DNA from: Candidatus Bathyarchaeia archaeon | GTDB taxonomy: Archaea; Asgardarchaeota; Heimdallarchaeia; JABLTI01 | Reading direction: 5' to 3' | NCBI GenBank assembly: GCA_035528035.1 | Contig: DATKZI010000037.1 | Location: 81,819 to 113,818, forward strand | DNA length: 32,000 nt | In this document: positions 7,552 to 21,646 of the stretch, in pieces | Numbering within the stretch: position 1 is the stretch's first letter | How the letters are laid out: each line of letters begins with the position of its first letter | Notes under the pieces: generated by a model | Databases searched by the model: none | The model's input: only the letters and a program-made list of their open reading frames with translations | What the model was told of the DNA's origin: nothing | Program-made: the position numbers and the translations under genes

Positions 7552-9094
7552 AGTGACAGACAAAAAACCATATAATCAAGCTTACTATCCTGAACCTTTA
7601 GTTTTTGAATTAGAAGAAACAAAATATCACAAATATTCTGCTCCTCAATTACCAGAAGAAATAGCAAAGAAAGTAAAAGACCCACAAAAGTTAATACCAA
7701 AAACTATGATTCGAACAGAACCTCCAAATCTTCCGAAATTAGCTGAATTCCAATTAGCACGACATTACTTACATTTAGCTCAAATGAATTTCTCGGTTGA
7801 CACTGGTTTTTATCCACTTGGAAGTTGCACGATGAAATATAATCCTAAAATAAACGATTTCATAACAATGGATCGTCGTGTAACAATGATTCATCCATTC
7901 CAACCTGCCAGAACAGTTCAAGGAAACATCCGTATTCTTTACGAAATTGAGCAAATGCTTAATGAAGTAGCAGGAATGGAAAGAACTACACTACAACCAT
8001 CAGCGGGAGCTCATGGTGAACTTACTGGGATTATGATTATTCGTGCATACCACTACGATCATGGTGAAGGTGAACAAAGAACTGAAGTTATTGTACCTGA
8101 TAGTTCACATGGAACAAATCCTGCAACTGTTGCAATGGCTGGATATAAGACCATAGTAATTAAATCAAAACCAAATGGTTTAGTAGATTTAGAAGCATTA
8201 AAAGCAGTAATTTCTGAAAAGACCGCTGCATTGATGTTAACTAATCCAAATACTTTAGGTCTATTTGAACAAGAAATATGTGAAATCGCAAAAATTGTTC
8301 ACGAAGTAGGTGGATTGTTATATTACGATGGAGCCAATTTTAATGCTATAATGGGTAAATGTCGACCAGGTGATATGGGATTTGATGCGATTCATTTCAA
8401 TCTACATAAAACATTTGCTACCCCACATGGAGGTGGTGGTCCGGGTGCAGGACCTGTGGGAGTTGTCAAAAAATTAGTTCCATATTTACCAAAACCAATG
8501 CCCGAATATGATAAAGCTTCTGGACAATATTACTTGAATTTCGATATGCCAAAGTCTATGGGTAAAATCAAAGGATTCTGGGGTAATTTTGGTGTGATAT
8601 TGCGTGCCTATGCTTATATACTATCATTAGGACCTAATGGCTTAAAAGAAGCATCAGAACAAGCAGTGCTTAACTCAAATTATCTGAAGAAGAAACTAAT
8701 GAAATTGGGTGGTTGGACTTTACCCTTTTCTCCTAATACACCAAGAAAACATGAATTTGTTCTTGAAGGTGAAACACTAAAAGAAGAAACAGGTGTAAGT
8801 ACAATGGATGTAGCAAAACGATTGCTTGATTTGGGCTACCACGCACCAACAGTTTATTTCCCATTAATTGTTCATGAAGCGCTAATGATAGAACCAACTG
8901 AAACAGAAAGTAAGAATACTTTAGATACTTTTGCTGAAACGATGGAACAAATCTTACGCGAATGTCGAGAAGATCCTGAAATACTTCACAATGCTCCACA
9001 ACATACTGCAGTAACTCGAGTTGATGAAGTTACAGCAGCTAAAGAACCAATATTATCATGGCAAATGTATAAGGAAAGGTTATCTCAAGAATAA
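7538..9094 (+). CDS. gcvPB: glycine dehydrogenase (decarboxylating) subunit 2
   Basis: PLP-lysine motif HFNLHKTF, then GGGGPG. The track start is TTG at 7538. GTG at 7553 is more likely: it has a strong SD ggagga at 7539-7544 and lies 1 nt after the gcvPA stop (7549-7551), which suggests translational coupling. Confidence 0.9.
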   Translation: MEEDKVTDKKPYNQAYYPEPLVFELEETKYHKYSAPQLPEEIAKKVKDPQKLIPKTMIRTEPPNLPKLAEFQLARHYLHLAQMNFSVDTGFYPLGSCTMKYNPKINDFITMDRRVTMIHPFQPARTVQGNIRILYEIEQMLNEVAGMERTTLQPSAGAHGELTGIMIIRAYHYDHGEGEQRTEVIVPDSSHGTNPATVAMAGYKTIVIKSKPNGLVDLEALKAVISEKTAALMLTNPNTLGLFEQEICEIAKIVHEVGGLLYYDGANFNAIMGKCRPGDMGFDAIHFNLHKTFATPHGGGGPGAGPVGVVKKLVPYLPKPMPEYDKASGQYYLNFDMPKSMGKIKGFWGNFGVILRAYAYILSLGPNGLKEASEQAVLNSNYLKKKLMKLGGWTLPFSPNTPRKHEFVLEGETLKEETGVSTMDVAKRLLDLGYHAPTVYFPLIVHEALMIEPTETESKNTLDTFAETMEQILRECREDPEILHNAPQHTAVTRVDEVTAAKEPILSWQMYKERLSQE

Positions 9095-9106
9095 CCCTCA
9101 TCCTTC

Positions 9107-9114
9107 TTTTTTTT
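9107..9114 (+). terminator. oligo-T tract downstream of gcvPB
   Basis: T8 run 13 nt after the gcvPB stop. Archaeal termination typically occurs at oligo-T. The run overlaps the stop codon of the convergent minus-strand gene. Confidence 0.4.
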
Positions 9115-10291
9115 ATTCCTCAATTCTCATAAGAATATCTTCGTGATAGCTAGTTATAACACGAATAAATCCTATTAATTCTTTATCTAATTTTAAATCG
9201 CCTGTATCAACTCTAAGTTTTTCAGTCTTTTCAAGTTTAGAAACAGTTGCAATAAGGATGATATTTTTTGTTCCTATCTTACGTATAACTATTGGTGAAA
9301 ATTGCTGATTTCCTCGACCAAAAATGAATCCTTGATTACCAATTACAGTTACTATTATTTTCGCTTTAGTGTATTTATCAAGTAAATCTAATATTCTTGA
9401 TTCGTTTAAATCCATTGCAATGATTTGTCGATTATAGATAGCATCAACCCCAAGAAGGGTTTTATCTAGTTTCATATAATCAGCAACTGCTTTACAAGTA
9501 GACCCGGAACCAAGTAAATATAGCGTTTCTCGATTCATATCTTCAGAAATCCTTTGAGCAATATACATTTGATCATGCTTTTCATCAAAGGTTGAGGGAG
9601 AAGCTATTTTGCCTCCTTGAAAAGCTGCTTTTAGGTAGGGAATAATTACCATGCCTTTTAATTCTGCACTTAATCTACCAGCACGAAAAGCTTCCTCATC
9701 TATATCCATTACTTCAGAATGTGTAAGATTTAATTGCCCTTCATTGAATTGTTTAAAAATCATTCCAGCAATTTCTGGGTTTAAAGCAAAACAAGCACTG
9801 TGCATTTTCACTCCACTAGGAACAGCTAAAAGAGGTATTTTATCCTGTATAGCTTCATACATATCACAAGCGGTACCATCCCCTCCCACAAATACTATTA
9901 ATTTCACCCCTCTTTCTAACATCTCTTTTGCAGCTTTTTTTGTATCTTCTCTAGTTGGTCTATTCTCGGTAAAATTACTTAGAACCTCATAATCGAAACC
10001 CATCTCTTGTAAAATATTCTCACCCATTTCATCTTTATAACAAAGAAATTTGATTTCATTTTTTTTATCACTAATAGTTGTTAAAAAGCGTCGAGCTCTT
10101 TCATTTGAGATTTGTTTACCTTCCCCATTTTCAATTTTAATCCAAATCTGATCAGCATCATCACTCCCTTTGAGACCTATACGACCTCCCACACCTGCAA
10201 TTGGATTTATTATTAAACCATAAAGTAATTTCTCAGAGTTTTTCATTTGTCCCGTAATTTTCATTTGAGTTGCTGTCATCAGTGTTTCCAA
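9113..10291 (-). CDS. ATP-NAD kinase / diacylglycerol-kinase-fold family protein (COG3199-like)
   Basis: GGDGT motif (IVFVGGDGT). N-terminal INPIAGVGGR. About 390 aa. The track start is TTG at 10291 and the first ATG is at 10279. Confidence 0.6.
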   Translation of the reverse strand: METLMTATQMKITGQMKNSEKLLYGLIINPIAGVGGRIGLKGSDDADQIWIKIENGEGKQISNERARRFLTTISDKKNEIKFLCYKDEMGENILQEMGFDYEVLSNFTENRPTREDTKKAAKEMLERGVKLIVFVGGDGTACDMYEAIQDKIPLLAVPSGVKMHSACFALNPEIAGMIFKQFNEGQLNLTHSEVMDIDEEAFRAGRLSAELKGMVIIPYLKAAFQGGKIASPSTFDEKHDQMYIAQRISEDMNRETLYLLGSGSTCKAVADYMKLDKTLLGVDAIYNRQIIAMDLNESRILDLLDKYTKAKIIVTVIGNQGFIFGRGNQQFSPIVIRKIGTKNIILIATVSKLEKTEKLRVDTGDLKLDKELIGFIRVITSYHEDILMRIEE

Positions 10292-10463
10292 ACCAATTAT
10301 TTTTTGTTTGTTTTTTTATTAAAAAATAAATCCCTAAATTGTAAATTTATTGTTTCATAAAATAATGTTATTTGTAAAAAATCTATTGTAAGAATGAATC
10401 AATCATTCTTTATATTTTATTTTAATAACAAAAAAACTAATATCTTTACAATAACCTATCATT

Positions 10464-12536
10464 ATGAAAACAGATTTCGTGATAGAAATGAATTATCCTG
10501 AAACTAAAAGGGAGGAAATTAGTGAAGTACTCCATGGTATAACTGTGCATGATCCGTACAGATGGCTAGAGAAATTTGATGACTCTGAAGTTCAAAATTG
10601 GTTGAACAAAGAGCATGAGTATTATCATAAAACTATGAACCAGATACCTAATTATAAAAAGTCAAAGAATCGAATCAAAGAATTTCTATCTTTAGGATTT
10701 ATAGGGGTGCCCGAAAAGAAAGACAATCTAATTTTCTATCAAAAACAAAAAACTGAAAATCAGCCAATTTTGTATGTGCAAGATGAACTCACAAAGGTAA
10801 CAAAAGAATTAGTAAATCCAAATAAATTGGCAAAAGAAAACCCTGTAGCATTAGATTGGTTTTATATATCACCTAAAGCAAAATACCTAGTTTATGGTTT
10901 ATCAGAAAGTGGTGATGAGTGGAGTCTTTTACACATAAAAGATATCAAAACAGGAGAAATTTTAACAGATAAAATTCCGAGAACAAGATACTGCAGTCTA
11001 GCTTGGTTAGATGATGAGAGTGGTTTTTATTATACTCGATATGTATTACCAGGAACCGTTCCTGAAGGACAAGAAAATTACATCAAACATATATACTATC
11101 ATAAAATAGGTACTGATTGGAAAGAAGATTCAATTATTTTTGGCGAAGGAAAGGATCCAACTTTTCACTATTCAGTTAATATTTCTGATGATCAAAGATA
11201 TCTTATAATTAACATAATGAAATATACGAAGAACGATCTCTACCTTCTTGATCTTCAGGAAAACAATAAACTAATAGAAATAACAGCTAATGAGGATTAT
11301 TTATTCAATGCTTTAATAAAAGATGGATTTTTATGGATTTTAACTAATAAAAATCATCCAAGATGGATTGTTTATAAAACTGAAGTGGACAAACCTTCAT
11401 TTGAAAATTGGGAAGAAGTAATTAAAGAATCAAATGACATTATTAGCCAAGTATTGATTGCTAAAGAAAAAATTTTCATTAAAATTATGAGAAATGCTTC
11501 CGACCATATAATTGTTTTTACTAAAGATGGAGAAAAAATCAAGGAATTAGATTTACTTCTATATAGTACTATAACTGAAATGGATACAGCTGCAAGAATA
11601 AATGTAGTAAAAGAAAATGAATTCTTTATTGGTTTGAGATCATTCCTAGAACCCAATATAATTTATAGATATGAAATAAATAATGATAAATTAACAATTT
11701 TTGAAAAGATTAAATCCCCTATCAAACCAGAGAATTTTGAAATCAAACAAGTTTGGTATGAATCAAAAGATGGTACAAAAGTATCATTATTTTTAGCTCA
11801 TAAAAAAGGATTAAAATTGGATGGAAATAATCCTACATTGCTTTGTGGATATGGTGGATTTAATATATCAGTGAAACCACCTTATCTCAAAAATTCCCGA
11901 TTTTTCTGGTTAGAAAATGGTGGAGTAATAGCTATTGCTAACTTGAGGGGTGGGTCAGAATATGGTGAAAATTGGCATCAAGATGGGATGCTCGGAAAGA
12001 AGCAGAATGTTTATGATGATTTTATCTATGCGGGAAAATGGTTGATAGAAAACAAATATGCTTCAAACAAAACCCTTAGTATCTATGGTAGAAGCAATGG
12101 TGGTTTACTAACAGGAGCAGCAGTTACACAAGCTCCAGAAATGTTTGGAGCAGTATATATTGGGGTACCATTATTAGATATGATACGATATCATCTTTTC
12201 AAGATAGCACGATACTGGATTCCCGAATATGGTTCATCTGAAAATCCCGAACAAATCGGGTTTATCTATAACTATTCACCATATCATAATGTAAAGAAAG
12301 GGATTAAATATCCACCAACTATCTTGGTTACAGCTGCATCTGATTCGCGAGTAGATGCAAATCATGCAATGAAAATGACTGCTCAAATGCAATGGGCTAA
12401 CGAATCAAAAGAACCAATAATACTTTTTGTAGAAAGGAAAGCAGGTCATGGTGTAGGGAAACCATTAGACCAACTAGTGGAAACAGAAACTGATCTTTAC
12501 ACTTTTCTAGGCTGGAAAACAGGTTTAAAGATGTAG
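10464..12536 (+). CDS. prolyl oligopeptidase (S9A serine peptidase)
   Basis: N-terminal HDPYRWLE. Long propeller region. C-terminal alpha/beta-hydrolase with nucleophile elbow GRSNGGLL, Asp in ASDSRVD and His in RKAGHGVG. Confidence 0.9.
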   Translation: MKTDFVIEMNYPETKREEISEVLHGITVHDPYRWLEKFDDSEVQNWLNKEHEYYHKTMNQIPNYKKSKNRIKEFLSLGFIGVPEKKDNLIFYQKQKTENQPILYVQDELTKVTKELVNPNKLAKENPVALDWFYISPKAKYLVYGLSESGDEWSLLHIKDIKTGEILTDKIPRTRYCSLAWLDDESGFYYTRYVLPGTVPEGQENYIKHIYYHKIGTDWKEDSIIFGEGKDPTFHYSVNISDDQRYLIINIMKYTKNDLYLLDLQENNKLIEITANEDYLFNALIKDGFLWILTNKNHPRWIVYKTEVDKPSFENWEEVIKESNDIISQVLIAKEKIFIKIMRNASDHIIVFTKDGEKIKELDLLLYSTITEMDTAARINVVKENEFFIGLRSFLEPNIIYRYEINNDKLTIFEKIKSPIKPENFEIKQVWYESKDGTKVSLFLAHKKGLKLDGNNPTLLCGYGGFNISVKPPYLKNSRFFWLENGGVIAIANLRGGSEYGENWHQDGMLGKKQNVYDDFIYAGKWLIENKYASNKTLSIYGRSNGGLLTGAAVTQAPEMFGAVYIGVPLLDMIRYHLFKIARYWIPEYGSSENPEQIGFIYNYSPYHNVKKGIKYPPTILVTAASDSRVDANHAMKMTAQMQWANESKEPIILFVERKAGHGVGKPLDQLVETETDLYTFLGWKTGLKM

Positions 12537-12578
12537 AACATCTTTCCTTTTTCCATTAAAACCCCATGAGGTAGAAAA

Positions 12579-13073
12579 ATGATAATAGAGATAGTGAAAG
12601 GAGACATAACAGAAATTACTGTGGATGCAATCGTTAATGCTGCAAACAATGAACTTTGGATGGGTGCAGGAGTAGCTGGCGCGATTAAAAGAAAAGGTGG
12701 TAAAATAATAGAAGAGGAAGCATTAGTAAAAGGTCCAATACAACATGGTGGAGCAGTGGAAACAACAGCGGGAGAATTAAAAGCTAAATATGTTATTCAT
12801 GCAGCAGCTATGAGAAGTGATGGGTATATTGATGAAAATTCATTGAAGTCAAGTGTTTTTAATAGCTTAAAACTAGCTGATGAATTAAAATTAAGAACAA
12901 TTGCCTTTCCTGCTTTGGGAACTGGTGTTGCAGGATATCCTGCTAAATTATGTGCTAAACAGATGATCGATACAATAAAGAATTTTCAACCTAAGATGCT
13001 TGAAAAAGTTGTACTAGTTTTATTTAGTGATGAAATATATCAAATTTTCAAAATTAAATTAGAACAGAAGTAA
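12579..13073 (+). CDS. macro domain protein (MacroD-type ADP-ribose binding/hydrolase)
   Basis: GDITEITVDAIVNAANNELWMGAGVAGAIKRKGG and FPALGTGVAGYP motifs. SD-like gaggt at 12568-12572. Lies 42 nt downstream of the peptidase gene. Confidence 0.85.
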   Translation: MIIEIVKGDITEITVDAIVNAANNELWMGAGVAGAIKRKGGKIIEEEALVKGPIQHGGAVETTAGELKAKYVIHAAAMRSDGYIDENSLKSSVFNSLKLADELKLRTIAFPALGTGVAGYPAKLCAKQMIDTIKNFQPKMLEKVVLVLFSDEIYQIFKIKLEQK

Positions 13074-13088
13074 AACAGAAAGAAAAAA

Positions 13089-13105
13089 GAGGATATATTA
13101 TCCTC
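13089..13105. terminator. perfect hairpin between convergent genes (macro-domain gene and surface-protein gene)
   Basis: gaggata-tat-tatcctc: 7-bp stem and 3-nt loop, centred in the 39-nt gap between the two stop codons. Confidence 0.4.
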
Positions 13106-13112
13106 ATTAAAT

Positions 13113-15791
13113 TTAGGATTCGTCATCTTTTGAACTAGATGAATCATCTTCTTCTTCTTGTTTCTTATTATTTTCTTCAAGGGCTTTCCGTGCTTGAAGT
13201 TTTATTTCTTCTCGTTTAGCATCTTCTTCAACAATTTCCATTTCACGATTTACAAGAATTTCTAATATTTGATCTGAGTACTTGCCACATTGATCGATTA
13301 TTCGTTCAGCATCTAAAGTATCTGTATAAAATGCTTCTTCATTTCCTTTGATTATCGGTAAAACGGTAGCTGTCCATATTGCTTTAGCTTCTCCATAAAG
13401 TGATTGAGAATCTGCTGCAAATTCAGTAAGACCTTCTCGAGATGCAGTATTAATAGTATATTGAGTCATCTTATTTTTTAAAATATCATATAGTTGTTGT
13501 CGATAATTCTCTAATGCAGTAATAGCATTTTTCAAGGCATCTCTTTTCTTTTCCAATTGATCTGGTTTTTCAGGTTCTGGCTTTTCTGGGATTTTTTCAT
13601 CAACCTTATCTGATCCTCCTTTTTCACCTAGAACCATCTTTTTTGTTTCGATTAGATCTGATTGTTGAATCGTTTGCTTTTTCTTTATGATTGCATCTAT
13701 ATTATATCGTTCGTCTTTAAGAGAGCTACTTTTACTGGATTTGGTTTTATCAACTAACTCTATTTCAGTGCGTTCGAGCTCCTTGCGTTTGTTAGGATCT
13801 TCTGGTCGGAAACCTCTCACGATTAAAAGAGTGATAAGTAGAAAGAATAAAACTGTTCCAAAACCACTTAACAAACCTATTATTAAATTCCTATAGTCTT
13901 TCGGTACTACTGTAACTGGGAAATCTAAAGCATCAAGAGGGTTAGTGCCATGATAATACTCATAACCATCAGAAAAATTATCGCCATCAGTATCCCAGTC
14001 TGAAGCATTTGTAAGAATTCTGGATTCTTCTTCAGTAGTTAATAAATCATTGTCTATATCATCTGTAATATTATCTTTAGTAAGAGGATCAAGAACACTA
14101 TATATTTCGTATCCATCTGAAAGTGTGTCTTGGTCGCTATCAATACTTAGGGGATTGGTATGATAATCATTTACCTCTTGTCCATCAGTTAAAGAATCAT
14201 GATCAGTATCTGCTATATAGGGATTGGTTCCAGCATTAAACTCTTGCAAATTAGACAATCCATCTGAATCCAAATCATAGCTGGCATCAATAGCATTATT
14301 AGGATTGAGCCCATAAAAAATTTCAAAATTGTCAGGCATCAAATCAGAATCGCTATCAGATGAAATCGGATTTGTTTCATAAATTAGTATTTCATCAGAA
14401 TCAGTTAGTGTATCACCATCTGTATCTTGATTGTAGGGATTAGTAAAATAGGTATTTATTTCATCAAAATCTGATAAACCATCTTGGTCAGAATCAATTA
14501 TTTCGTATCCCAAATATACCTCTTTTTTATCATCAAAATATTGAGTATAAGAAATATATATTGTACCATAATTATCAGCAGCAATTGCAGGATCAAAAGC
14601 ATCCACCAAACCTGAGCTTACAAGCTGTGAGTTTTCCCAGCTAGTGGAGCTGCTAAATCTTTGTCGTAAATAGATATTTGTTTTTCCAGCAGAAAATCGC
14701 TCAAAAACTAAGAAAGTATTACCAAAGGTATCTGAAATAATATCATAATCACCATTTGGTGCAAGATAAGTGCTTATAGTAGATGGTGATGACCAACCAC
14801 TTTCAATAGATTTAGCAATTGCTTTTGAATAATAGAGATTGGTTGAAGTTCCATCATCTTTGAAAATTAAATGAAGATTTTTAGATTCTCTTTCATAGGT
14901 AATTCTAGGATTAATTGGATTATATGCAACAGTGGTTATTTTTTCCTCTGCAATCCAAGAATTTCCACTTTCTTTATAGGAATAATATAACTCATAATCG
15001 TTTGTACGGTTATCAGTCCAGATTAGGTGTAAAGTACTATTTTCATCAATAGTTAAAGCAGGTGGAGAATTTCCTACAGCTGATGCACCGTTGGTAATTC
15101 TAGTAAATGGTGTATCCCAAGAACCAACATTTGGATCAAAGAAGCTATAATATAAGTCACCATTTGGGTTATCTGATTTATCTATATGAACGAGATGAAC
15201 TATACCATTTTTGTCTGTTATACAAACAGGACCAGTGCTATTTCCACTATTTAATAATAAACTAGATTTAGGTTGAATGGTATTTTCATTAAGAAAAGTC
15301 ACTTCACTCAATTCATAATTATCTGTTAAATATTCCTCAAAAACAAAATGAATAGTTTCATCATCATCTGGTGCAGCAGAATAACCTCTAAGGACTGTAC
15401 CATCAATTGCTTCCACTTGTAGAATGTTTGATGACCATGAATTAGTTTTTGAACCATAACTATAATACAAAGTACTTACTGCACTTGGGGTATAGGGTTG
15501 AAATTGATCTATCCAAGAAAGATAGATATTACCCGTTTCATTATTATATACTAAATTGGTTTGAGTTGAATTCCATCCTGTTGAAGAAACTCTCTCGAGA
15601 GATTCAAACTCAAATACTTGAGGTACGAATTTAATATTATTATTAAAATCAGTAAAGCTGCACGTTTGATAAGTTGAAGAATTACTATTAAGTATAGGAA
15701 TAATTGAGAAAATAATTAGAATAAAAATTAATCCAACAATTCTCTTACTATTAAACTGAGATAGTTTGAAATTACTTATATGTGTCATCAA
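13113..15791 (-). CDS. type-I membrane surface protein: propeller-like ectodomain + 8 TSP3-like repeats + TM + 234-aa cytoplasmic domain
   Basis: N-terminal hydrophobic signal/anchor (aa 17-34). Seven units of about 50 aa (aa 87-430) with the recurring pattern h-H-[LIF]-[IV]-[WFH]-x-D ... LYYS ... (S/G)-W-(S/D/E). Eight units of DxDxDxLxDxxE...NP (aa 433-623). TM NLIIGLLSGFGTVLFFLLITLLIV (aa 635-658) followed by RGFR. K/E-rich helical C-terminal region ending EEEDDSSSSKDDES. The likely true start is ATG at 15788; the track uses TTG at 15791. Confidence 0.8.
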   Translation of the reverse strand: MMTHISNFKLSQFNSKRIVGLIFILIIFSIIPILNSNSSTYQTCSFTDFNNNIKFVPQVFEFESLERVSSTGWNSTQTNLVYNNETGNIYLSWIDQFQPYTPSAVSTLYYSYGSKTNSWSSNILQVEAIDGTVLRGYSAAPDDDETIHFVFEEYLTDNYELSEVTFLNENTIQPKSSLLLNSGNSTGPVCITDKNGIVHLVHIDKSDNPNGDLYYSFFDPNVGSWDTPFTRITNGASAVGNSPPALTIDENSTLHLIWTDNRTNDYELYYSYKESGNSWIAEEKITTVAYNPINPRITYERESKNLHLIFKDDGTSTNLYYSKAIAKSIESGWSSPSTISTYLAPNGDYDIISDTFGNTFLVFERFSAGKTNIYLRQRFSSSTSWENSQLVSSGLVDAFDPAIAADNYGTIYISYTQYFDDKKEVYLGYEIIDSDQDGLSDFDEINTYFTNPYNQDTDGDTLTDSDEILIYETNPISSDSDSDLMPDNFEIFYGLNPNNAIDASYDLDSDGLSNLQEFNAGTNPYIADTDHDSLTDGQEVNDYHTNPLSIDSDQDTLSDGYEIYSVLDPLTKDNITDDIDNDLLTTEEESRILTNASDWDTDGDNFSDGYEYYHGTNPLDALDFPVTVVPKDYRNLIIGLLSGFGTVLFFLLITLLIVRGFRPEDPNKRKELERTEIELVDKTKSSKSSSLKDERYNIDAIIKKKQTIQQSDLIETKKMVLGEKGGSDKVDEKIPEKPEPEKPDQLEKKRDALKNAITALENYRQQLYDILKNKMTQYTINTASREGLTEFAADSQSLYGEAKAIWTATVLPIIKGNEEAFYTDTLDAERIIDQCGKYSDQILEILVNREMEIVEEDAKREEIKLQARKALEENNKKQEEEDDSSSSKDDES
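13923..14495 (-). repeat. array of 8 thrombospondin-type-3-like acidic Ca-binding repeats (coding, in frame)
   Basis: Examples: DSDQDGLSDFDEINTYFTNP, DTDGDTLTDSDEILIYETNP, DLDSDGLSNLQEFNAGTNP, DTDHDSLTDGQEVNDYHTNP, DTDGDNFSDGYEYYHGTNP. Period is 22-27 aa. Confidence 0.8.
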
Positions 15792-16019
15792 TCTAAAACA
15801 TCCTACATATACAATATAATTTGTTTAAGGTAGAAAAAAAGCTTTTTATAGTGAACATTCTTCAAGAACAAAAGTTTTTATCAATAATTCTAGCTCGATA
15901 TTAAACGTTATGATGAAACAGCGAAGTTAGGAAAAACTTATTAAAACATTTCCAATCGACAAATCAATAGATTGATTTAAAAGACAAATTAATTGTGATA
16001 GAAGAAAAGGTGCTTCAAA

Positions 16020-16511
16020 ATGGCCGATCAAGAAATTAAATGCCTCATAGAAGGCGGGAAAGCAAGCCCTGCACCACCTTTAGGTCCAGCTCTAGGCCCG
16101 ACAGGTGTTAACATTGGTTTGGTTATTCAAAAATTGAACCAAGAAACGTCTGGATTTGCAGGGATGAAAGTTCCAGTAACAATTATTATTCATCAAGATA
16201 GAACATTTGATCTTAAAGTAGGAATACCAACTACAGCAGGTTTAATCCTAAAGGAAGCAGGTTTAAAAATCGGTGGTAAAGGTTCAACCGAAGAAGTTCC
16301 AGAAGAGCCTTTTGTCGGAAATATTACCATGGATCAAATATTAAAGATTGCAGATATAAAGCGATCAGGAAGTTTTGCTTCTTCAACTAAAACCCTTGTA
16401 AAAGAGATTTTAGGAACAATGCTAAGTTGTAAGGTAACCTGTGATGGTAAAAATCCTCGTGATGTTCAAAAAGAAGTCGATAAAGGTGTCTATGACAGTA
16501 AATTCAAGTAA
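16020..16511 (+). CDS. rpl11: 50S ribosomal protein uL11
   Basis: GGKASPAPPLGPALGPTGVNI motif, 163 aa. SD-like aaggtg at 16008-16013. Confidence 0.95.
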   Translation: MADQEIKCLIEGGKASPAPPLGPALGPTGVNIGLVIQKLNQETSGFAGMKVPVTIIIHQDRTFDLKVGIPTTAGLILKEAGLKIGGKGSTEEVPEEPFVGNITMDQILKIADIKRSGSFASSTKTLVKEILGTMLSCKVTCDGKNPRDVQKEVDKGVYDSKFK

Positions 16512-16705
16512 TTAAAGGATTTACTGACACAACCCAAACTTTTATTTTTCCATTCATTTTTGAAGAACCTAGTGCATGCAAGTGTTGCATGTCGAGTGAA
16601 AAAAATGTGAATAAAACCATCTAGGAATAAGTCTTAATAATAGCAAACATCTTGGTTGGTTTTCAAGTTTCAATATAAGTTAAATTCATTTGAAACTAGT
16701 AAGAG

Positions 16706-18841
16706 GTGTTGAAAATTAAAAAATATCCCGGCTTGAAATACTTATTCAAGCCACAGAGTATCGCAGTAATCGGTGCTTCAAAAAAACCTGGCAAAATTGG
16801 CTATGAAATAATGGATAACATAATATCCTATGGATTTAAAGGAGAACTCTATCCCATCAATCTCAGTGAAACAGAAATCCTTGGTAAAAAGGTTTACAAA
16901 ACAATAACCGAAGTTCCAGGAGAAATTGATTTCGCAGTTATTTCTGTACCAGCAAAATTCGTTCCTGAAGTTATGGAAGAATGTGGTCAGAAAGGCGTCA
17001 AAAGCGCTGCTGTAATTACTAGTGGCTTCGGAGAAGTTGGTGATTTTGAAACTGAAGAAAAATTAGTGGAGATAGCTGAAAAATACAATATGCCTTTTAT
17101 AGGACCAAATATTTTCGGAATATATTATGCTCCTACAAATCTAAATGCTTCTTTTGGTCCAGCGGATGTTAAACCAGGAAAATTAGCTTTTATTACACAA
17201 AGTGGAGCACTTGGTATTGCATTGATGGGTTGGACAATTACTAATAAGATCGGCTTATCATCAATAATTAGTGTTGGAAATAAGGCTCAAATAGGTGAAA
17301 GCGAACTACTTGAAAATTACCTCGAAAATGATCCAAACACTAAAGCGATTTTATTATATGTTGAAGGACTACATGATGGCAAAGCATCTATGGACATTTT
17401 CAAAAAAGTTGGCTTAAAGAAACCAATAATAGCTCTTAAATCTGGTCGTTCTGTTCGAGGGGCAGTTGCAGCAGCGAGTCACACAGGTAGCTTAGCAGGT
17501 TCAGATAAAGTATATTCAGCTGCTTTCAAACAAAGTGGTGTTCTAAGAGCTATAGATGCTTCTGAAGCTTTTGATTGGGCAAGATGTATTACAAATAATC
17601 CACGACCAAAAGGTCCTAACGCTCTTATCATAACAAATGGTGGTGGTGTGGGTGTTATGGCAACAGATGCTTGCGAGGATTACAATCTTGAATTATATAA
17701 TGATCAAGAGAAACTCAAAGAATTATTCTTCAAACCAGATATAATGCCATCTTATGGCTCTACCAAGAATCCTGTAGATATTACAGGTGGTGGTGGTGAA
17801 TTAGCTTACAAGAAAGCTATTGAAGCTGCTTTTGAAGCTGAAGAAATTGATTCCATTATAGTTCTTTATTGTCAAACTGCTACCACAAATCCTGATCTTC
17901 TAGCTGATTATATTATAGAAGTCGATAATAAATACAATAACAAGAAACCTTTTGTTGTTGCTAGCATTGGTGGCGAAGCTGTAGAAGAAATGGTTGATAA
18001 ATTAAATGAGCATGAAATCCCCACATACGATCTACCTGAAAAAGCTATTTCATCATTAAGTGCTTTATATCGCTGGTCTAATTTTGTTTCACGATATGAA
18101 AAAATAGGAAAATCTAAACCACTAAAATTACCATTAGAACAAATAAATGCTATAATTGCTCAAGTAAGAAAAGAGGGTAGAGTTCAAATGCTCGAGCATG
18201 AAGCAAAAGAGGTATTCAAATTATGCAATTTAGATGTTCCAGCATTTGGTTTAGCTAAAACGAAGAATGAAGCGATTCAACATGCAAAGAATGTTGGTTT
18301 TCCAGTTGTCATGAAAATTGTTTCTGAGGATATCATTCATAAAAGTGATGCTGGTGGTGTAGTAGTTAGCATTAAAGATACTAAAGAAGTAGAAGAAGCA
18401 TTTGATAAGATAATGAAGAATGCTAAAGCTTACAAATCTGATGCAAATATCAGAGGAATTTTAGTATCAAACATGGCTCCAAAAGCTACAGAAGTCATCA
18501 TCGGTGTAACAAAAGATCCTACTTTTGGTCCTACAGTAATGTTTGGATTGGGTGGTATCTATGTTGAAATACTCAAAGATGTAGTTTTCAGAGTTGCCCC
18601 ATTCCCTCTTGAAGATGCTCAAGATATGATTGATAGCATTAAAACTAGAGATATGCTTTATGGTGTAAGAGGACAAAAACCAGCAGATATTGAAGGATTG
18701 AAGAATGCCATTTATGTTATTAGCGAATTAGTTTCACAAATTGATGATATTAAGGAATTAGACATCAATCCATTATTTGCCATGGAAGACAAAGCTTGTG
18801 TTGTTGATGCAAGGATAACCTTAACAAGTAAAAAAGAGTGA
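16706..18841 (+). CDS. acd: acetyl-CoA synthetase (ADP-forming), fused alpha-beta form
   Basis: N-terminal CoA-binding segment PQSIAVIGAS. Phospho-histidine loop AAASHTGSLAGS. C-terminal ATP-grasp segment (VVMKIVSEDIIHKSDAGGV). The start codon is GTG at 16706 or TTG at 16709, overlapping or just after agaggtg. Confidence 0.85.
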   Translation: MLKIKKYPGLKYLFKPQSIAVIGASKKPGKIGYEIMDNIISYGFKGELYPINLSETEILGKKVYKTITEVPGEIDFAVISVPAKFVPEVMEECGQKGVKSAAVITSGFGEVGDFETEEKLVEIAEKYNMPFIGPNIFGIYYAPTNLNASFGPADVKPGKLAFITQSGALGIALMGWTITNKIGLSSIISVGNKAQIGESELLENYLENDPNTKAILLYVEGLHDGKASMDIFKKVGLKKPIIALKSGRSVRGAVAAASHTGSLAGSDKVYSAAFKQSGVLRAIDASEAFDWARCITNNPRPKGPNALIITNGGGVGVMATDACEDYNLELYNDQEKLKELFFKPDIMPSYGSTKNPVDITGGGGELAYKKAIEAAFEAEEIDSIIVLYCQTATTNPDLLADYIIEVDNKYNNKKPFVVASIGGEAVEEMVDKLNEHEIPTYDLPEKAISSLSALYRWSNFVSRYEKIGKSKPLKLPLEQINAIIAQVRKEGRVQMLEHEAKEVFKLCNLDVPAFGLAKTKNEAIQHAKNVGFPVVMKIVSEDIIHKSDAGGVVVSIKDTKEVEEAFDKIMKNAKAYKSDANIRGILVSNMAPKATEVIIGVTKDPTFGPTVMFGLGGIYVEILKDVVFRVAPFPLEDAQDMIDSIKTRDMLYGVRGQKPADIEGLKNAIYVISELVSQIDDIKELDINPLFAMEDKACVVDARITLTSKKE

Positions 18842-18877
18842 ATTCATTAGCACAATTCACTCCTTTTAATTTTTTTT
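18838..18877 (+). terminator. hairpin plus T7 tract at the end of acd
   Basis: gtgaatt (18838-18844) pairs with aattcac (18854-18860) around a 9-nt loop. The stem includes the TGA stop. It is followed by tccttttaattttttt, with T7 at 18871-18877. Confidence 0.5.
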
Positions 18878-18987
18878 CAAGGAAATAAATATTAAATCAT
18901 TTTAATTTTATCTCATTCATCTTAGATAAATTAAAAAATAGAGAAAATACAAGTCATCTTGGTAGATAGGTCAACAAGAAAGCACAG

Positions 18988-20178
18988 GTGAACAAAATTT
19001 CCTATAGTTTCTCTTATCATAATGGTCTTCAATTTAATTTTTCTAACAATAAAAAACTGCTTATAGATGGAAGCACAACAAAAATTTCTCCTAAAACAAC
19101 ATCCATTGTTAGTCATGCTCATTCTGATCATTTTTCTGTAATGAATTCAAATATTCCTACTTATGCAACACAAGAAACAATTGATTTGTATTTATGTCAA
19201 AAAACAGGTAATACTAGAGGAATATTTCATCCAATGAGATTTAATGAAAAGTTTGAGCTAGAAACTGATTTTGATGACCTTGAAGTAACTTTAGTATCTT
19301 CTGGTCATATATTAGGTTCTGCTTCAATTTTATTGGAATTAGCAGGGAAAAAAATCCTGTTTTCAAGTGATATTGGTGGAAAAGGATTATTAACTATTAA
19401 AGAACCATTAGCAAAACCCGAAGTTGATACGTTAATAGTTGAAGCAACATTTGGCTCACCTGAAATAAGTTTTCAACCTAGGGAAGAAATTTCTATGGAT
19501 ATTTTAAAATGGGCTGCTAATGCAATCAAAGAAAAAAGAAATGTTGTTATTTCTGCTGGAAGAATAGGTTCTGCTCAAGAGCTCATTAAACTTTTTAATG
19601 ATTTCACTAATTTACGAGTAATTACTCATGGAGATGTTTCTCCTCCATCTGAGGTATACAAAAAACATGATATAAATTTGGAATTCAAGGATTCAAAATC
19701 TGATGAAGGACGAGAAATTGTGAAAAGTGGAGAAGCAGTAATCATTCAATCTCGAGAAAGAAAAATTGTTCCTTATTTTTTGAGTGAACATATAAAATAC
19801 CGTAGTGCAATTGTTACTGGAATGGCTTCAAGGTTTAGCTATAAGGACTTTGATGCATCTTTCCCATTATCCTCACATGCAAGTTTCGATGAACTATTGG
19901 ACTATATTAGTAAAGTAACACCTAAAAAGGTCTTTACACTTTATGGTTTTGAAAAGAAATTAGCTAAAGCGATAAGTAATGAATTGCAAATACCTGCGAT
20001 ACCATTAAAAGATAAAAGTCTTGAAGAAGGATTAGAAAATCTGGTAGAAATACCTCATTTGAAGAAAACACAAAACATTAATCTTTTAACTGAAAAACCA
20101 TTATTACCCGAAGAACAACAAAAGAAACCTAGTCTTCAAAAAGATAAAACGCTAGATGATTTTTTTAGAAAGAGATAA
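18988..20178 (+). CDS. metallo-beta-lactamase fold, beta-CASP family nuclease
   Basis: MBL motifs LLIDGS, SHAHSDH (HxHxDH), SGHILGSA and FSSDIG. Then VEATFG and the beta-CASP insert (VVISAGRIGSAQELIKLF). Motif B is LSSHAS. The motif C position reads TLYGF, with Tyr where RNA-acting members have His. A low-complexity K/E/Q/P tail ends in KTLDDFFRKR. GTG start. Confidence 0.75.
   Translation: MNKISYSFSYHNGLQFNFSNNKKLLIDGSTTKISPKTTSIVSHAHSDHFSVMNSNIPTYATQETIDLYLCQKTGNTRGIFHPMRFNEKFELETDFDDLEVTLVSSGHILGSASILLELAGKKILFSSDIGGKGLLTIKEPLAKPEVDTLIVEATFGSPEISFQPREEISMDILKWAANAIKEKRNVVISAGRIGSAQELIKLFNDFTNLRVITHGDVSPPSEVYKKHDINLEFKDSKSDEGREIVKSGEAVIIQSRERKIVPYFLSEHIKYRSAIVTGMASRFSYKDFDASFPLSSHASFDELLDYISKVTPKKVFTLYGFEKKLAKAISNELQIPAIPLKDKSLEEGLENLVEIPHLKKTQNINLLTEKPLLPEEQQKKPSLQKDKTLDDFFRKR
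20137..20166 (+). other. PIP-box-like C-terminal motif (QKDKTLDDFF) in the beta-CASP nuclease
   Basis: L-x-x-F-F lies 3 residues from the C-terminus and follows a roughly 55-aa low-complexity linker. This matches the hydrophobic core of the PCNA-interacting peptide consensus Qxx[LIM]xx[FY][FY]. The Gln is at -5 rather than -3. Confidence 0.4.
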
Positions 20179-20197
20179 TTCATCGATGTGAAATATT

Positions 20198-20614
20198 GTG
20201 TCAAATTGTTTTGAGTTCGATCTACTTGCTATACAGCCAAGTCAACTATATATTAGTAAGAAAAAACTTGCAGCTGTTCAAGAAAAAATCAATCCTAAAA
20301 ATATTAATTCAATAGGGATTATTCCAATAAAGAAATTGGATGATGATATAATTTTTAGTGATGGTCATACTCGAGCATTTGCTGCATATTTAGCTGGTTA
20401 TAGAACAATCTTATGTGAAATGGAAACTGAAGAATTAGATTGGGAAATGTATAAGGAATGTGTCAAATGGTGTAAGGAGGAAAGAATTTTCTCTATAGCT
20501 GATTTTAAAACTCGTATTATTAGTCATCAAGATTATGAACAATTATGGTATAAACGATGTGAAATAATGCAAAATGAAATAATTGCTAAACGAGAAAAAT
20601 TGAAAGAAAAATAA
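20198..20614 (+). CDS. small ParB/sulfiredoxin-fold (ParB N-terminal-like) protein
   Basis: IQPSQLYISKKKL ... IIPIKKLDDDIIFSDGHTRAFAAYLAGY resembles the ParB-like nuclease/Srx signature (DGHHR..A....G). 138 aa. GTG start 19 nt after the nuclease stop, same strand. Confidence 0.5.
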   Translation: MSNCFEFDLLAIQPSQLYISKKKLAAVQEKINPKNINSIGIIPIKKLDDDIIFSDGHTRAFAAYLAGYRTILCEMETEELDWEMYKECVKWCKEERIFSIADFKTRIISHQDYEQLWYKRCEIMQNEIIAKREKLKEK

Positions 20615-20641
20615 TAACATACCAATAATTAGTTCCAAAAA

Positions 20642-21505
20642 TTATTTCTCTTTTGTTATATTGTCATATTTTATGTCTCTGGCTTTTACAACTTCTACAT
20701 CTCTAGTAGAACAACCATCTTCAATAATTTTAATCAAATCAGCGTTTAAACTATTACGATCAATTATAGCCCATTTTACTTTCTCAACTGTTTTATCGAT
20801 CATTTGTTCAACAATATTTATTGTTAGATTATTTTTATGATATTTAGGTAAAATATGACTGATAGCTACCGGTGTAAGATCCATGATTTCATTGAATCGC
20901 GTAGTATAATGACCCCCACCAAAACAAATACTAGGAATGATTTCTGGATTTTCTTTCTGTAAACATATATCCATAATTGTTTTAGCAACAGCCAATAATG
21001 CATTTGTGTTTTGATATTCTATTTCGGTACTTCCAACTTCAATATAAATTAAAGGCGTTTTCATACTTGTAGGACCATGATGAGTTGCCTCAACAGTTAC
21101 ATCAAAATCAGGTAATTCTAACTCATTCTGATATACTTTCAAATGTAAATAAGATTCTCTTATCGCACGACAAGAACCATATGCTAGTTCAAAGGGGTTT
21201 CCACCATGGCTATTATCAGCTCCTAAATTGCCTGTTACATGAGTTAAAAGACTTGGTTTATTAGCTTCACTTTTATGACGAGAACCAAATAATAATAGAT
21301 CAGCATTTAATTGGTCACAATGATCTGACTCAATAACATCTTTTCCTGAAAAAACTAATCTTATATTTTTATGTTTTAGAATAGGTGTTCCATCAAATAA
21401 TTCACCGGTCTCTTCCCAAACCCATCCTTGCAATAAAGTTTCCCTAATATTTCTACCACAAATATTTTGCTTTGTTGTAATTATTACTGGATTCTTAAGA
21501 TTCAA
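20642..21505 (-). CDS. dtdA: D-aminoacyl-tRNA deacylase, archaeal type (DTD2)
   Basis: FGSRHKSEANKPSLLTHVTGNLG, VEATHHGPT, IEVGSTE, FGGGHY and SHILPKY all match the DTD2 family as remembered from the Pyrococcus enzyme. TTG start in the track. Confidence 0.9.
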   Translation of the reverse strand: MNLKNPVIITTKQNICGRNIRETLLQGWVWEETGELFDGTPILKHKNIRLVFSGKDVIESDHCDQLNADLLLFGSRHKSEANKPSLLTHVTGNLGADNSHGGNPFELAYGSCRAIRESYLHLKVYQNELELPDFDVTVEATHHGPTSMKTPLIYIEVGSTEIEYQNTNALLAVAKTIMDICLQKENPEIIPSICFGGGHYTTRFNEIMDLTPVAISHILPKYHKNNLTINIVEQMIDKTVEKVKWAIIDRNSLNADLIKIIEDGCSTRDVEVVKARDIKYDNITKEK

Positions 21506-21601
21506 AAGTGGATCACCAAAGAATAACTATCTCAATTAAGCTCAAACAAATTACATGATAGATTTAATCTTAAAATTATTCATTGTAACTTAAAAGAAAA
21601 T

Positions 21602-21641
21602 AAAAAAAAATTAAAATTAGTGGGCTAAAAAGCACCACTAA
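21602..21641 (-). terminator. hairpin plus T9 tract downstream of argF
   Basis: 10-bp stem with one bulge: ttagtgggct (21617-21626), loop aaaa, agc-a-ccactaa (21631-21641). It starts 6 nt after the argF stop. On the minus strand it is followed by ttttaattttttttt (A9 at 21602-21610 on the plus strand). Confidence 0.55.
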
Positions 21642-21646
21642 AAAAT

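Follow-up and report, generated by a model that had tools for sequence, protein, structure and literature searches.

The gene, its neighbourhood and a head-less variant

The window analysed here, a 32,000-nucleotide stretch of DNA from a Heimdall-group Asgard archaeon, carries an open reading frame at 13113..15791 (-) of 892 codons including the stop, with TTG at 15791 as codon 1 and ATG at 15788 as codon 2. Its length in DNA of 32% G+C and the retrieval of about 33 full-length orthologues with 37–75% identity rule out a chance reading frame. As a 100% identical database protein (P0001) comprises 891 aa, translation probably starts at the ATG at 15788; of the 892-aa protein claimed in an earlier note on this DNA, the reading frame stands, while the length is better given as 891 aa. 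The intergenic region that separates it from the divergently oriented L11 gene (15792..16019, strand ".") is presumed to hold the promoter and leader; within it, TGTAGGATGTTT at 15796–15807 precedes the ATG by 9–20 nt and recurs unchanged in locus L015.

The family was found to be limited to MAGs labelled Heimdallarchaeota, with one copy per genome, and most Asgard lineages are without it. Database names of its members are restricted to 'hypothetical' or 'BNR-4 repeat-containing', and descriptions of the architecture or of its cytoplasmic domain were not found in the literature. Comparison of 13 loci revealed the same block of 11 housekeeping genes in 13/13, in which the gene is always located between the L11 gene and a macro-domain gene. 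It diverges faster (38–54% identity) than its neighbours (44–94%; named housekeeping genes 57–94%); surface proteins evolve fast. The neighbouring genes are housekeeping genes that point to no partner, and signalling genes were not found nearby in any of the 13 loci.

Two related species-level genomes harbour a head-less form at the same syntenic site, recovered on 6 contigs, in which an intact in-frame ORF encodes a signal peptide, four TSP3 repeats, the transmembrane (TM) helix and the cytoplasmic helix bundle, with the promoter region kept. With 73 substitutions between them, the two head-less genes give a dN/dS value of 0.44, no more than a moderate one. In every other complete orthologue retrieved the propeller is whole, with 46% mean identity and many invariant residues, which led to the conclusion that most lineages maintain the head by selection. 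The core module consists of stalk, TM helix and bundle, with a head that can be lost, and the head-less variant indicates that the function of this module can proceed without a propeller, which weakens a strict model in which the head senses and the tail transmits.

Predicted architecture of the protein

At the N-terminus, aa 1–35 (15687..15791 (-)) combine a basic n-region (K9, K16, R17) with a hydrophobic segment of about 19 residues identified by hydropathy, and AF2 placed a helix at 12–34 with low to medium pLDDT. Pairwise identity among orthologues is only 18% here, as expected of a signal sequence, and the segment is predicted to act as a Sec signal peptide or an N-terminal anchor. The following linker (aa 36–67, 15591..15686 (-)) is likewise poorly conserved (19% pairwise identity); pLDDT is below 50 at aa 32–63, and strands modelled at 60 and 66–67 suggest that short strands at about aa 60–67 close blade 7.

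The seven-unit, propeller-like head proposed earlier was recovered by structure prediction, which gives seven blades for aa about 60–432. AF2, cross-matches of blade profiles, Foldseek and BNR_4 together support a propeller at aa 68–432 (14496..15590 (-)), with blades at approximately 68–131, 132–180, 181–232, 233–285, 286–341, 342–391 and 392–432. The blades are related in sequence, each is four-stranded with a pLDDT of 85–94, and they share the motif h-H-L-h-W-x-D in strand B, L-Y-Y in strand C and, in the C–D hairpin, what is left of an Asp-box with W at its end. The degenerate Asp-box described previously is therefore present as a remnant, but the strict form [ST]xDxGxx[WFY] occurs in 0/30 heads; the FRIP motif ([FYWL]RIP) is also found in 0/30. 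Foldseek matched the head to sialidase-clan propellers with E down to 9e-13, and the best superposition was obtained with 5muk (TM 0.65, rmsd 5.5 Å), followed by 5mvh, 5mum and 7esk, seven-bladed propellers of PL42 (ex-GH145), all four with TM 0.59–0.65 and about 12–15% sequence identity; seven-bladed PL24 lyases were likewise among the best superpositions. Pfam BNR_4 (PF15892) matched 18/30 orthologues at E<=0.01 (best 1.3e-9), and among 10 orthologues scored individually the gathering score of 27.3 bits was passed by P0015 (30.3), P0023 (28.2) and P0031 (38.3), while the query protein itself gave no BNR_4 match at E<=1. Free-standing BNR_4/BNR_2 propellers were matched at 1e-19 to 1e-26, and weak profile matches were obtained to 5mvh, 4irt and 5mum. 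The head is thus strongly predicted to be a sialidase/BNR-clan propeller whose closest relatives are the BNR_4 family, represented by the carbohydrate lyases of PL42/ex-GH145 and PL24.

Invariant His and Asp residues are found in blades 2–4 (H148, H199, H255, D204, D260) and, as they occupy equivalent positions of the repeated strand motif, their role appears to be structural. In a 100-residue profile alignment to 5mvh/4irt, the column facing the Arg of the BACCELL_00856 'YRSG' motif, which we take by inference to equal the neutraliser Arg166 of FoRham1, varies between I, R, C and L. Since conservation is spread over the propeller faces (0.61 vs 0.55) and is not focused on one of them, a binding pocket could not be pinpointed.

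The last blade is followed by the stalk, for which the eight TSP3-like repeats of the original reading hold: aa 433–625 (13917..14495 (-)) comprise eight TSP3_bac repeats of 22–27 aa each, identified by Pfam, ligand spacing and AF2, with DxDxD beginning at aa 433, 456, 479, 506, 528, 551, 578 and 598/600. Pfam TSP3_bac (PF18884) scored 44.4 bits in the query against a cut-off of 25 and matched 30/30 orthologues. All eight tandem repeats have an EF-hand-like spacing of ligands at positions 1, 3, 5, 9 and 12 (DxDxDxxxDxxE); among 30 orthologues these Asp/Glu columns vary little or not at all, with position 9 occupied by N514 in repeat 4 and T586 in repeat 7, and AF2 modelled the stalk with pLDDT >90 and a short helix beginning at position 9 of each repeat. 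Profile matches of the stalk include the Ca-binding region of Bap (7c7r, 1e-5), and weak ones were obtained to lanmodulin and to an EF-hand protein. Based on ligand spacing and these matches, the stalk is presumed to be stiffened by Ca2+ bound at eight predicted sites.

A single TM helix follows at aa 634–659 (13815..13892 (-)), as judged by hydropathy and an AF2 helix at 634–660, with RGFR next and 234 residues after the helix, in agreement with the positive-inside assignment made earlier. One TM helix with a basic juxtamembrane motif fixes the orientation, and averaged over the family the net flank charge is -3 before the helix, as expected outside, and +4 after it, as expected inside. From these flank charges and the basic, hydrophobic N-terminus, a type-I topology (N-out, C-in) with the C-terminal part inside is strongly predicted, which agrees with the cytoplasmic placement of this domain in the earlier note. 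Its view of the ectodomain as rich in sequons was not borne out, as the density is 1.51 per 100 aa against 1.76 expected from composition; positions N74, N184 and N251 are kept in 23–27/30 members.

The cytoplasmic part of 234 aa comprises, in order, a conserved basic motif next to the membrane, a linker predicted to be disordered and a three-helix bundle, so that the large cytoplasmic region proposed previously is present, although the folded domain accounts for only about 130 of these residues. The juxtamembrane motif (A/V)R(Q/G)FRP..(5)..KRKELER.E at aa 660–683 (13743..13814 (-)) has 52% pairwise identity, invariant F661, P663 and L672 and a helix at 666–681 (AF2); in 5 orthologues, Pfam 'Protocadherin' matched sub-threshold over TM helix and juxtamembrane motif. 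The charged linker at aa 684–741 (13569..13742 (-); pLDDT 29–50, 20–33% identity) begins with a weakly conserved helix at 691–711, continues as a disordered Pro/Glu/Lys stretch and varies in length, with about 60–80 aa of flexible sequence and large insertions in P0029, P0030 and P0032. The bundle at aa 742–870 (13182..13568 (-)), with helices at 743–774, 785–814 and from 822 onward, carries the core motif TASRE.LTEFA.DSQ.LY.EAK.IW...ILPLIKG.E and 14 invariant columns, including the charged or polar residues E786, E790, Q796, E801, E818 and E829; modelled alone, it reached a pLDDT of 95.6 and a pTM of 0.84 (AF2). The end of its long charged third helix and an acidic Ser/Asp/Glu tail make up aa 871–892 (13116..13181 (-)), of which aa 876–892 share 21% identity. 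With 54% pairwise identity, compared to 46% for the propeller, the bundle is, together with the juxtamembrane motif, the best-conserved non-repeat part of the protein. An exhaustive profile search of 1.84e9 representatives recovered it from no more than 14 genuine clusters, all of this family. No PDB fold was matched at E<=1e-3 by Foldseek, a consistent Pfam match was not found, and a kinase, cyclase, HAMP, phosphatase or other signalling domain was absent from the tail according to Pfam.

Comparison with known systems

FoRham1, a member of PL42, is a BNR_4 protein with a seven-bladed, carbohydrate-binding propeller whose anterior pocket holds the catalytic residues His85, His105, Tyr150 and Arg166 (PMC8377490). 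The propellers of PL42 (ex-GH145), PL24 and PL25 (FoRham1 7ESK, BT3686 5MUK, BACCELL_00856 5MVH, LOR_107 6BYX) share with the query seven four-stranded blades and the blade motif hHLxW, h-x-Y-x-x-S and G-x-T/S-W, whereas these enzymes are soluble proteins or lipoproteins that measure about 400 aa and lack a stalk, a TM helix and a tail. GH33 sialidases and classical BNR proteins belong to the same clan, gave the lowest Foldseek E values (2w38 at 9e-13, 7lbu, Neu2) and correspond to the Asp-box remnant in the C–D hairpin; a GH33 sialidase was nevertheless rejected owing to six blades versus seven in the model, an rmsd of 7–16 Å and FRIP or strict SxDxGxTW in 0/30 members.

The tandem, extracellular and presumably Ca2+-dependent DxDxDGxxDxxE...NP repeats are shared with TSP3_bac proteins, Myxococcus CglD/MtsD and region B of staphylococcal Bap (7C7R). 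In NCBIfam, the nearest TSP3 models describe two myxobacterial adhesion proteins, CglD and MtsD, a relation at repeat level only (CglD at 39 bits against an NCBIfam cut-off of 400), and CglD, MtsD and Bap differ in being outer-membrane lipoproteins or wall-anchored, without TM helix and cytoplasmic domain. Eukaryotic thrombospondin/COMP, in which type-3 repeats (PF02412) lead into a lectin-like C-terminal domain (TSP_C), was dismissed, as only the bacterial TSP3 model matches, TSP_C is absent and thrombospondin chains are missing among PDB profile matches at E<=10. Further TSP3-stalked surface proteins (P0034–P0058, P0077, P0111), of which the source-named ones are mostly from Asgard archaea, have a signal peptide, a variable head, a TSP3 array and a TM helix about 25–30 aa past the last repeat, and the heads of P0055, P0058, P0067 and P0074 carry the blade repeat of the query. 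A second TSP3-stalked gene is located in the window at 22959–26231. Among the matches listed, the tails of these proteins mostly extend 0–50 aa past the TM helix, which upholds the claim that a long cytoplasmic tail is unusual, and the few long ones (P0034, P0047, P0077, P0100, P0111) are unrelated to the three-helix bundle. Archaeosortase substrates carry a sorting motif and then a TM helix no further than about 10 residues from the C-terminus; such a substrate (PGF-CTERM and the like) could be discarded because the TM helix is followed by 233 residues with a folded domain and an NCBIfam CTERM model is absent.

The resemblance to integrin alpha or sortilin suggested before holds for the layout and fails for homology. 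The ten-bladed propeller of sortilin is accompanied by a 10CC module, and its short tail carries sorting motifs; Vps10 proteins share the type-I layout, in which an Asp-box-type propeller is linked through one TM helix to a tail in the cytoplasm, but here seven blades run into TSP3 repeats, Pfam gave no Vps10 or Sortilin match in the query and 30 orthologues, and profile matches to sortilin were likewise not found. Integrin alpha also has a seven-bladed head associated with Ca2+ sites, and its only TM helix borders on a basic juxtamembrane motif as well; in the query, however, the predicted Ca2+ sites lie in the stalk and not in the blades, thigh or calf domains and a beta subunit are missing, the blade motif is of BNR_4 type and FG-GAP was matched neither in the query nor in 30 orthologues (Pfam). 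The bundle resembles generic three-helix bundles in helix number, lengths, up-down-up topology and TM (about 0.45–0.58) and differs from them by an rmsd of mostly 4–13 Å in the named families and by the absence of a Pfam sequence signal. Its best PDB matches are the MIC60 bundle 9QWR (E 0.08), syntaxin Habc (Sso1/Sso2), a spectrin repeat and a BAG domain; as the fold is generic, these matches do not indicate a partner. Syntaxins are tail-anchored, with the order Habc bundle, SNARE motif and anchor, while the query TM helix lies N-terminal to the bundle; together with a Foldseek E of 0.25 or worse and no Syntaxin/SNARE among the Pfam families listed, this argues against a syntaxin Habc/SNARE relationship. 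With uninformative names and a bundle restricted to so few clusters, the architecture is no common annotated family, and taken as a whole the earlier observation on 13113–15791 is confirmed and its interpretation supported, except as regards richness in sequons and a signalling role.

Possible roles and significance

We tentatively consider the protein a lineage-specific type-I surface protein that works not as a freely acting enzyme but as a transmembrane tether resembling adhesion receptors, a reading to which we give somewhat less than an even chance, and its likeliest role is that of a glycan-binding or adhesive head tethered to a cytoplasmic partner. The ectodomain would be exported via the Sec-type N-terminus, and its head may recognise carbohydrates or glycoconjugates, whether these belong to particles, to partner cells or to the envelope of the cell itself. 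Loaded with Ca2+, the stalk would keep the head off the membrane, and the bundle would dock the molecule to a conserved intracellular partner, be it the cytoskeleton, membrane-shaping machinery or a scaffold. A more specific version, in which the bundle is an Asgard-specific docking domain that physically links a head for glycan binding or adhesion with the actin cytoskeleton of the archaeon or with membrane-remodelling machinery, as an independently evolved counterpart of eukaryotic adhesion receptors, seems to us decidedly improbable.

As the closest solved structures are enzymes (sialidases, 5muk, 5mvh, 5mum, 7esk, 6byx), the protein could instead be a carbohydrate-active enzyme that is anchored in the membrane and processes polysaccharides outside, at the cell surface, either as a lyase of the PL42/PL24 kind or as a sialidase-like hydrolase, with stalk and TM helix as anchor only and the cytoplasmic part used for sorting or turnover. 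BNR_4 as the sole family-level sequence signal, the weak profile matches to 5mvh, 4irt and 5mum, the invariant residues H148, H199, H255, D204 and D260, and the peptidase-family matches, chitodextrinase name and caspase-family name among the other TSP3-stalked proteins listed are consistent with this. We nevertheless regard an enzyme as unlikely, because the invariant His/Asp residues occupy equivalent repeat positions that point to a structural role, FRIP and the strict Asp-box are found in 0/30 members, and the column facing the 'YRSG' Arg varies in the one alignable stretch; the gene moreover resides in a fixed housekeeping block and not in a polysaccharide-utilisation locus, the bundle is more conserved than the head, and the head-less form persists. 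Conservation of bundle and juxtamembrane motif and the in-frame variant, which keeps promoter region, signal peptide, TM helix and bundle in two species, would also suit a cytoplasm-centred scaffold built on a family-unique, strictly single-copy bundle, in which juxtamembrane motif and bundle organise the inner membrane face and the ectodomain is an accessory that can be changed or lost. Retention of the full propeller at 46% mean identity in the other complete orthologues retrieved, and the only moderate dN/dS of 0.44 from 73 substitutions, make such a scaffold quite unlikely.

Very low probabilities are assigned to two further roles. A stalked canopy or coat of an archaeon without a classical S-layer, spaced or anchored by the cytoplasmic domain, would be compatible with a single-copy gene fixed in the housekeeping block of the clade, the modelled head-on-stalk shape, further TSP3-stalked proteins in the same genome (e.g. 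22959–26231) and the sequons N74, N184 and N251 kept in 23–27/30 members, but the family is missing from most Asgard lineages, and where the head is lost such a coat would be left incomplete. A ligand-gated signalling receptor would gather its bundles and recruit a signalling protein when ligand or Ca2+ causes the ectodomains to cluster, in line with the receptor-like layout, the flexible linker to a conserved interaction-type domain and the acidic Ser-rich tail; a tail devoid of kinase, cyclase, HAMP, phosphatase or other signalling domains, the lack of signalling genes near the 13 loci and the existence of the head-less variant argue against it.

No known prokaryotes are more closely related to eukaryotes than the Heimdall-group Asgard archaea, and to our knowledge little is known about how their cells contact particles or partner cells. 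The family described here is a concrete single-copy candidate for such contact in one Heimdall-group clade, as it pairs a recognisable binding-type head outside with a strongly conserved, family-specific domain inside, and the natural head-less variant provides a ready-made comparison. In addition, a general Asgard display scheme of variable head, TSP3 stalk and TM helix has been documented and structurally described. If the protein were only an anchored enzyme, it would be an ordinary, though unannotated, surface protein, whereas the docking-domain reading, if true, would allow a possible part in contacts with syntrophic partners. Should the bundle have a defined partner, the family would offer a tractable example of transmembrane coupling in Heimdall-group archaea.

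Gene model and the propeller head

Window positions 13113-15791 (-) hold an open reading frame of 892 codons, in which TTG is codon 1 and ATG (15788) codon 2. As the identical database protein P0001 (100% identity to the product) comprises 891 aa, translation most likely starts from ATG 15788. A database search returned ~33 full-length orthologues (846-961 aa, at least 89% query coverage, 37-75% identity), 30 of which could be aligned end to end with a mean column identity of 48%. Together with the 892 codons, these orthologues establish the gene as real. The observation made in the earlier note is confirmed. In the window, which has a G+C content of ~32%, the 12-nt element TGTAGGATGTTT occupies 15796-15807 (-), 9-20 nt before the start codon. 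Locus L015 carries it unchanged (~4924-4935), though the cytoplasmic regions of the two products are only ~52% identical as protein, and it may represent a ribosome-binding or leader element.

AlphaFold2 modelling on the 30-sequence alignment predicted a head (aa 70-430, pLDDT 85-94) with A-B-C-D strands in seven groups, the last of which (blade 7) is apparently closed by short strands from the N-terminal side (aa 60-67). A Foldseek search of this model against the PDB yielded 534 matches at E ≤ 1e-3. Six-bladed sialidases gave the lowest E-values (2w38 at 9e-13), yet with rmsd values of 7-16 Å, while the best superpositions were obtained with seven-bladed propellers, namely BT3686 (5muk; TM 0.65, rmsd 5.5 Å), 5mvh, 5mum, FoRham1 (7esk) and the PL24 enzyme LOR_107 (6byx). 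The seven-unit propeller first read from the translation is thus borne out both by the modelled blades and by their closest structural counterparts.

Profile comparisons pointed in a similar direction: Pfam BNR_4 was matched by 18 of the 30 orthologues (best 1.3e-9), with the gathering score passed by three of ten scored individually, and BNR_2 was matched by two orthologues. By itself, the query sequence did not reach significance for BNR_4, and a phmmer search with it against the PDB gave chance matches only, to protein disulfide isomerase. Searching with the head only retrieved free-standing propellers of ~385 aa annotated as BNR_4/BNR_2 (1e-19 to 1e-26), and the family profile aligned weakly with 5mvh and 4irt across two blades sharing the motif hHLxW ... 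YxxS ... GxTW. FoRham1 is described in PMC8377490 as a seven-bladed BNR_4 member with an anterior-face active site. Neither a strict SxDxGxx[WFY] Asp-box nor a FRIP motif was present in any of the 30 heads, and the degenerate Asp-box of the earlier reading is a remnant only. Therefore, the head belongs to the sialidase/BNR clan as a divergent member whose closest family is BNR_4, and an assignment as GH33 sialidase was ruled out.

The earlier note saw many N-x-S/T sequons in the ectodomain as fitting a glycosylated surface protein; an enrichment in sequons is not supported, as their overall density is not raised. Three sequons (aa 74, 184 and 251; window ~15037-15572) are nevertheless kept in 23-27 of the 30 orthologues. 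Two lie where blades 1 and 3 begin, the third in the loop leading into strand B of blade 4, and they could be glycosylation sites or simply parts of structural motifs.

Stalk, membrane helix and cytoplasmic bundle

The head is followed by eight TSP3 repeats starting at aa 433, 456, 479, 506, 528, 551, 578 and 598/600, the number originally proposed, and the stalk scored 44.4 bits against Pfam TSP3_bac (cut-off 25). Across the 30 sequences, positions 1, 3, 5, 9 and 12 of the repeat hold acidic residues with little or no variation, a spacing that equals that of EF-hand loops. In the stalk model (pLDDT >90), each repeat enters a short helix at its position 9, and the family profile matched the Ca-binding region of Bap (7c7r) at 1e-5 as well as, weakly, lanmodulin and an EF-hand protein. 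We infer that the stalk binds Ca2+ and is rod-shaped.

The N-terminus of the product combines a basic n-region with a hydrophobic stretch of ~19 residues and shows 18% identity among orthologues; signal sequences are typically poorly conserved. A second hydrophobic segment (aa 634-659) is predicted to be helical, and the family mean net charge of −3.0 over the 15 preceding and +4 over the 15 following residues therefore places the ectodomain outside and aa 660-892 inside, in agreement with the topology proposed before. Sub-threshold matches to Pfam Protocadherin (PF08374) were observed over the helix and the basic juxtamembrane region (aa ~620-730; equivalent to window ~13600-13930) in five of the 30 orthologues, including P0004, P0015, P0017 and P0027 (17-23.4 bits, cut-off 26.3; best 6.9e-5), and were treated as probably compositional.

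Although 234 residues do lie inside, as the earlier note had described, they form four parts rather than one large domain: a basic, conserved juxtamembrane motif, (A/V)R(Q/G)FRP..(5)..KRKELER.E (52% identity), a poorly conserved linker of variable length (pLDDT 29-50), a three-helix bundle (aa ~742-870) and a C-terminal acidic tail. Modelled alone with AlphaFold2, the bundle reached a pLDDT of 95.6 and a pTM of 0.84. Fourteen of its columns are invariant, among them several with charged or polar residues, and its pairwise identity exceeds that of the propeller (54% vs 46%). An exhaustive search of all 1.84 billion representatives with the bundle profile returned 15 proteins, 14 of which belong to the present family. 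The sole exception, the bacterial protein P0128, was discarded as spurious, since its 11 matches fell on an ~80-residue tandem repeat and covered 36 profile positions. No consistent Pfam family was found among the 30 bundle sequences, which gave scattered matches only, including DUF6746 in seven of them at 0.011 or worse. In a Foldseek search, no PDB entry passed E ≤ 1e-3; the top-ranking ones were generic bundles such as MIC60, syntaxin Habc, spectrin and BAG.

Syntenic block and head-less variant

Scanning a single genome for each species identified 11 loci, with one copy per genome and all in MAGs labelled Heimdallarchaeota or Promethearchaeati. In 13 of 13 loci (L001-L013), an 11-gene block (window ~7538-22588) retains order and orientation: OTCase, D-Tyr-tRNA deacylase (DTD), two unknown genes, ADP-forming acyl-CoA synthetase, L11, the target gene, macro domain, prolyl oligopeptidase, NAD kinase and GcvP. 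Across these loci the target gene changes far more rapidly than the genes around it (38-54% vs 44-94% identity; 57-94% for the named housekeeping genes). The product is thus a fast-evolving surface protein inherited vertically inside a single Heimdall-group clade. Functional inference from operon context fails, because every neighbour is a housekeeping gene.

NCBI labels the source MAG of P0001 'Candidatus Bathyarchaeia archaeon', and the named orthologue sources and syntenic loci are, without exception, labelled Heimdallarchaeota, Thorarchaeota, Promethearchaeati or Asgard group. Since the housekeeping neighbours share 57-94% identity with their counterparts in Heimdall MAGs, the former label looks wrong. 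Elsewhere in the window, two adjacent genes at 18988-20178 (+) and 20198-20614 (+), encoding 396 aa and 138 aa, had no Pfam match at 1e-4, and one orthologue gave a faint RMMBL match. Both genes are conserved and keep their place in 10 of the 13 loci; the remaining three contigs end before reaching it. A MoxR-type AAA+ ATPase gene followed by an overlapping VWA-domain protein gene lies at 208-2155 (+); it is a common, chaperone-like pair, unrelated to the propeller-stalk gene.

Two closely related Heimdall species carry a 445-aa gene at the same syntenic site, isolate 12F4_9 (L003/L015; L015:4953-6290 (+), this form being present on six contigs) and CSMAG_1263 (L008:3026-4363 (+)). This variant retains, in frame, the upstream TGTAGGATGTTT, start, signal peptide, four TSP3 repeats, TM helix, juxtamembrane motif and bundle, and lacks the propeller and the other four repeats. 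No propeller remnant could be recognised in the spacer ahead of the gene, which measures 486 bp when the 429-aa form is called and 438 bp from the extended start. The two copies share 94.5% nucleotide identity with a dN/dS of 0.44 (27 synonymous and 46 non-synonymous differences), and we therefore concluded that stalk, TM helix and bundle can persist without the head.

Interpretation and related surface proteins

The structural interpretation given at the outset is supported, and the best-supported, albeit tentative, functional reading is an adhesion-receptor-like tether with a carbohydrate-recognising head, a Ca2+-stiffened stalk and a bundle that would couple them across the membrane to a putative cytoplasmic partner. 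The earlier-noted resemblance to integrin-alpha and sortilin holds as a likeness of layout only, as their defining features fail when tested in the present family. Conservation of the present propeller is not concentrated on one face (0.61 vs 0.55) and gives no pointer to a pocket. Alternatively, though with lower probability than the tether, the protein may be a membrane-anchored lyase or hydrolase. The head-less variant speaks in favour of a cytoplasm-centred scaffold, which we consider slightly less probable still. A component of the surface coat and a signalling receptor are less supported, and both seem improbable next to the tether.

Literature searches on Asgard/Heimdall surface proteins and on TSP3 repeats brought up no description of the present family, and the propeller-stalk-bundle family is undescribed. 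Many Asgard proteins are displayed in this way with different heads (DUF2341, SBBP, beta-helix, peptidases, caspase). Among the matches listed, the TM helix of TSP3-stalked proteins typically follows 25-30 aa past the last repeat and the tail mostly comprises 0-50 aa, whereas a conserved cytoplasmic bundle is the mark of the present family; its TM/juxtamembrane and bundle profiles matched no other TSP3 protein among 120 listed. The window itself encodes a second such protein at 22959-26231 (+), of 1090 aa, with a signal-like N-terminus, a beta-rich head bearing similar H-x-x-W / Y-Y / W motifs, ~24 TSP3 repeats, a TM helix (aa ~1025-1047) and a tail of only ~45 aa; the family head, juxtamembrane and bundle profiles gave no match in it.

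Long cytoplasmic tails of 116-293 aa were found in P0077, P0100, P0111, P0034 and P0047, several from Asgard archaea. Hydrophobic and basic residues abound in that of P0077 (Heimdall), while that of P0111 bears two CxxC pairs resembling a zinc ribbon. These tails are unrelated to the present bundle (hhalign probability 0.1 for P0077 and P0100), and combining one outside scaffold with differing inside domains may be a more general feature of Asgard archaea.
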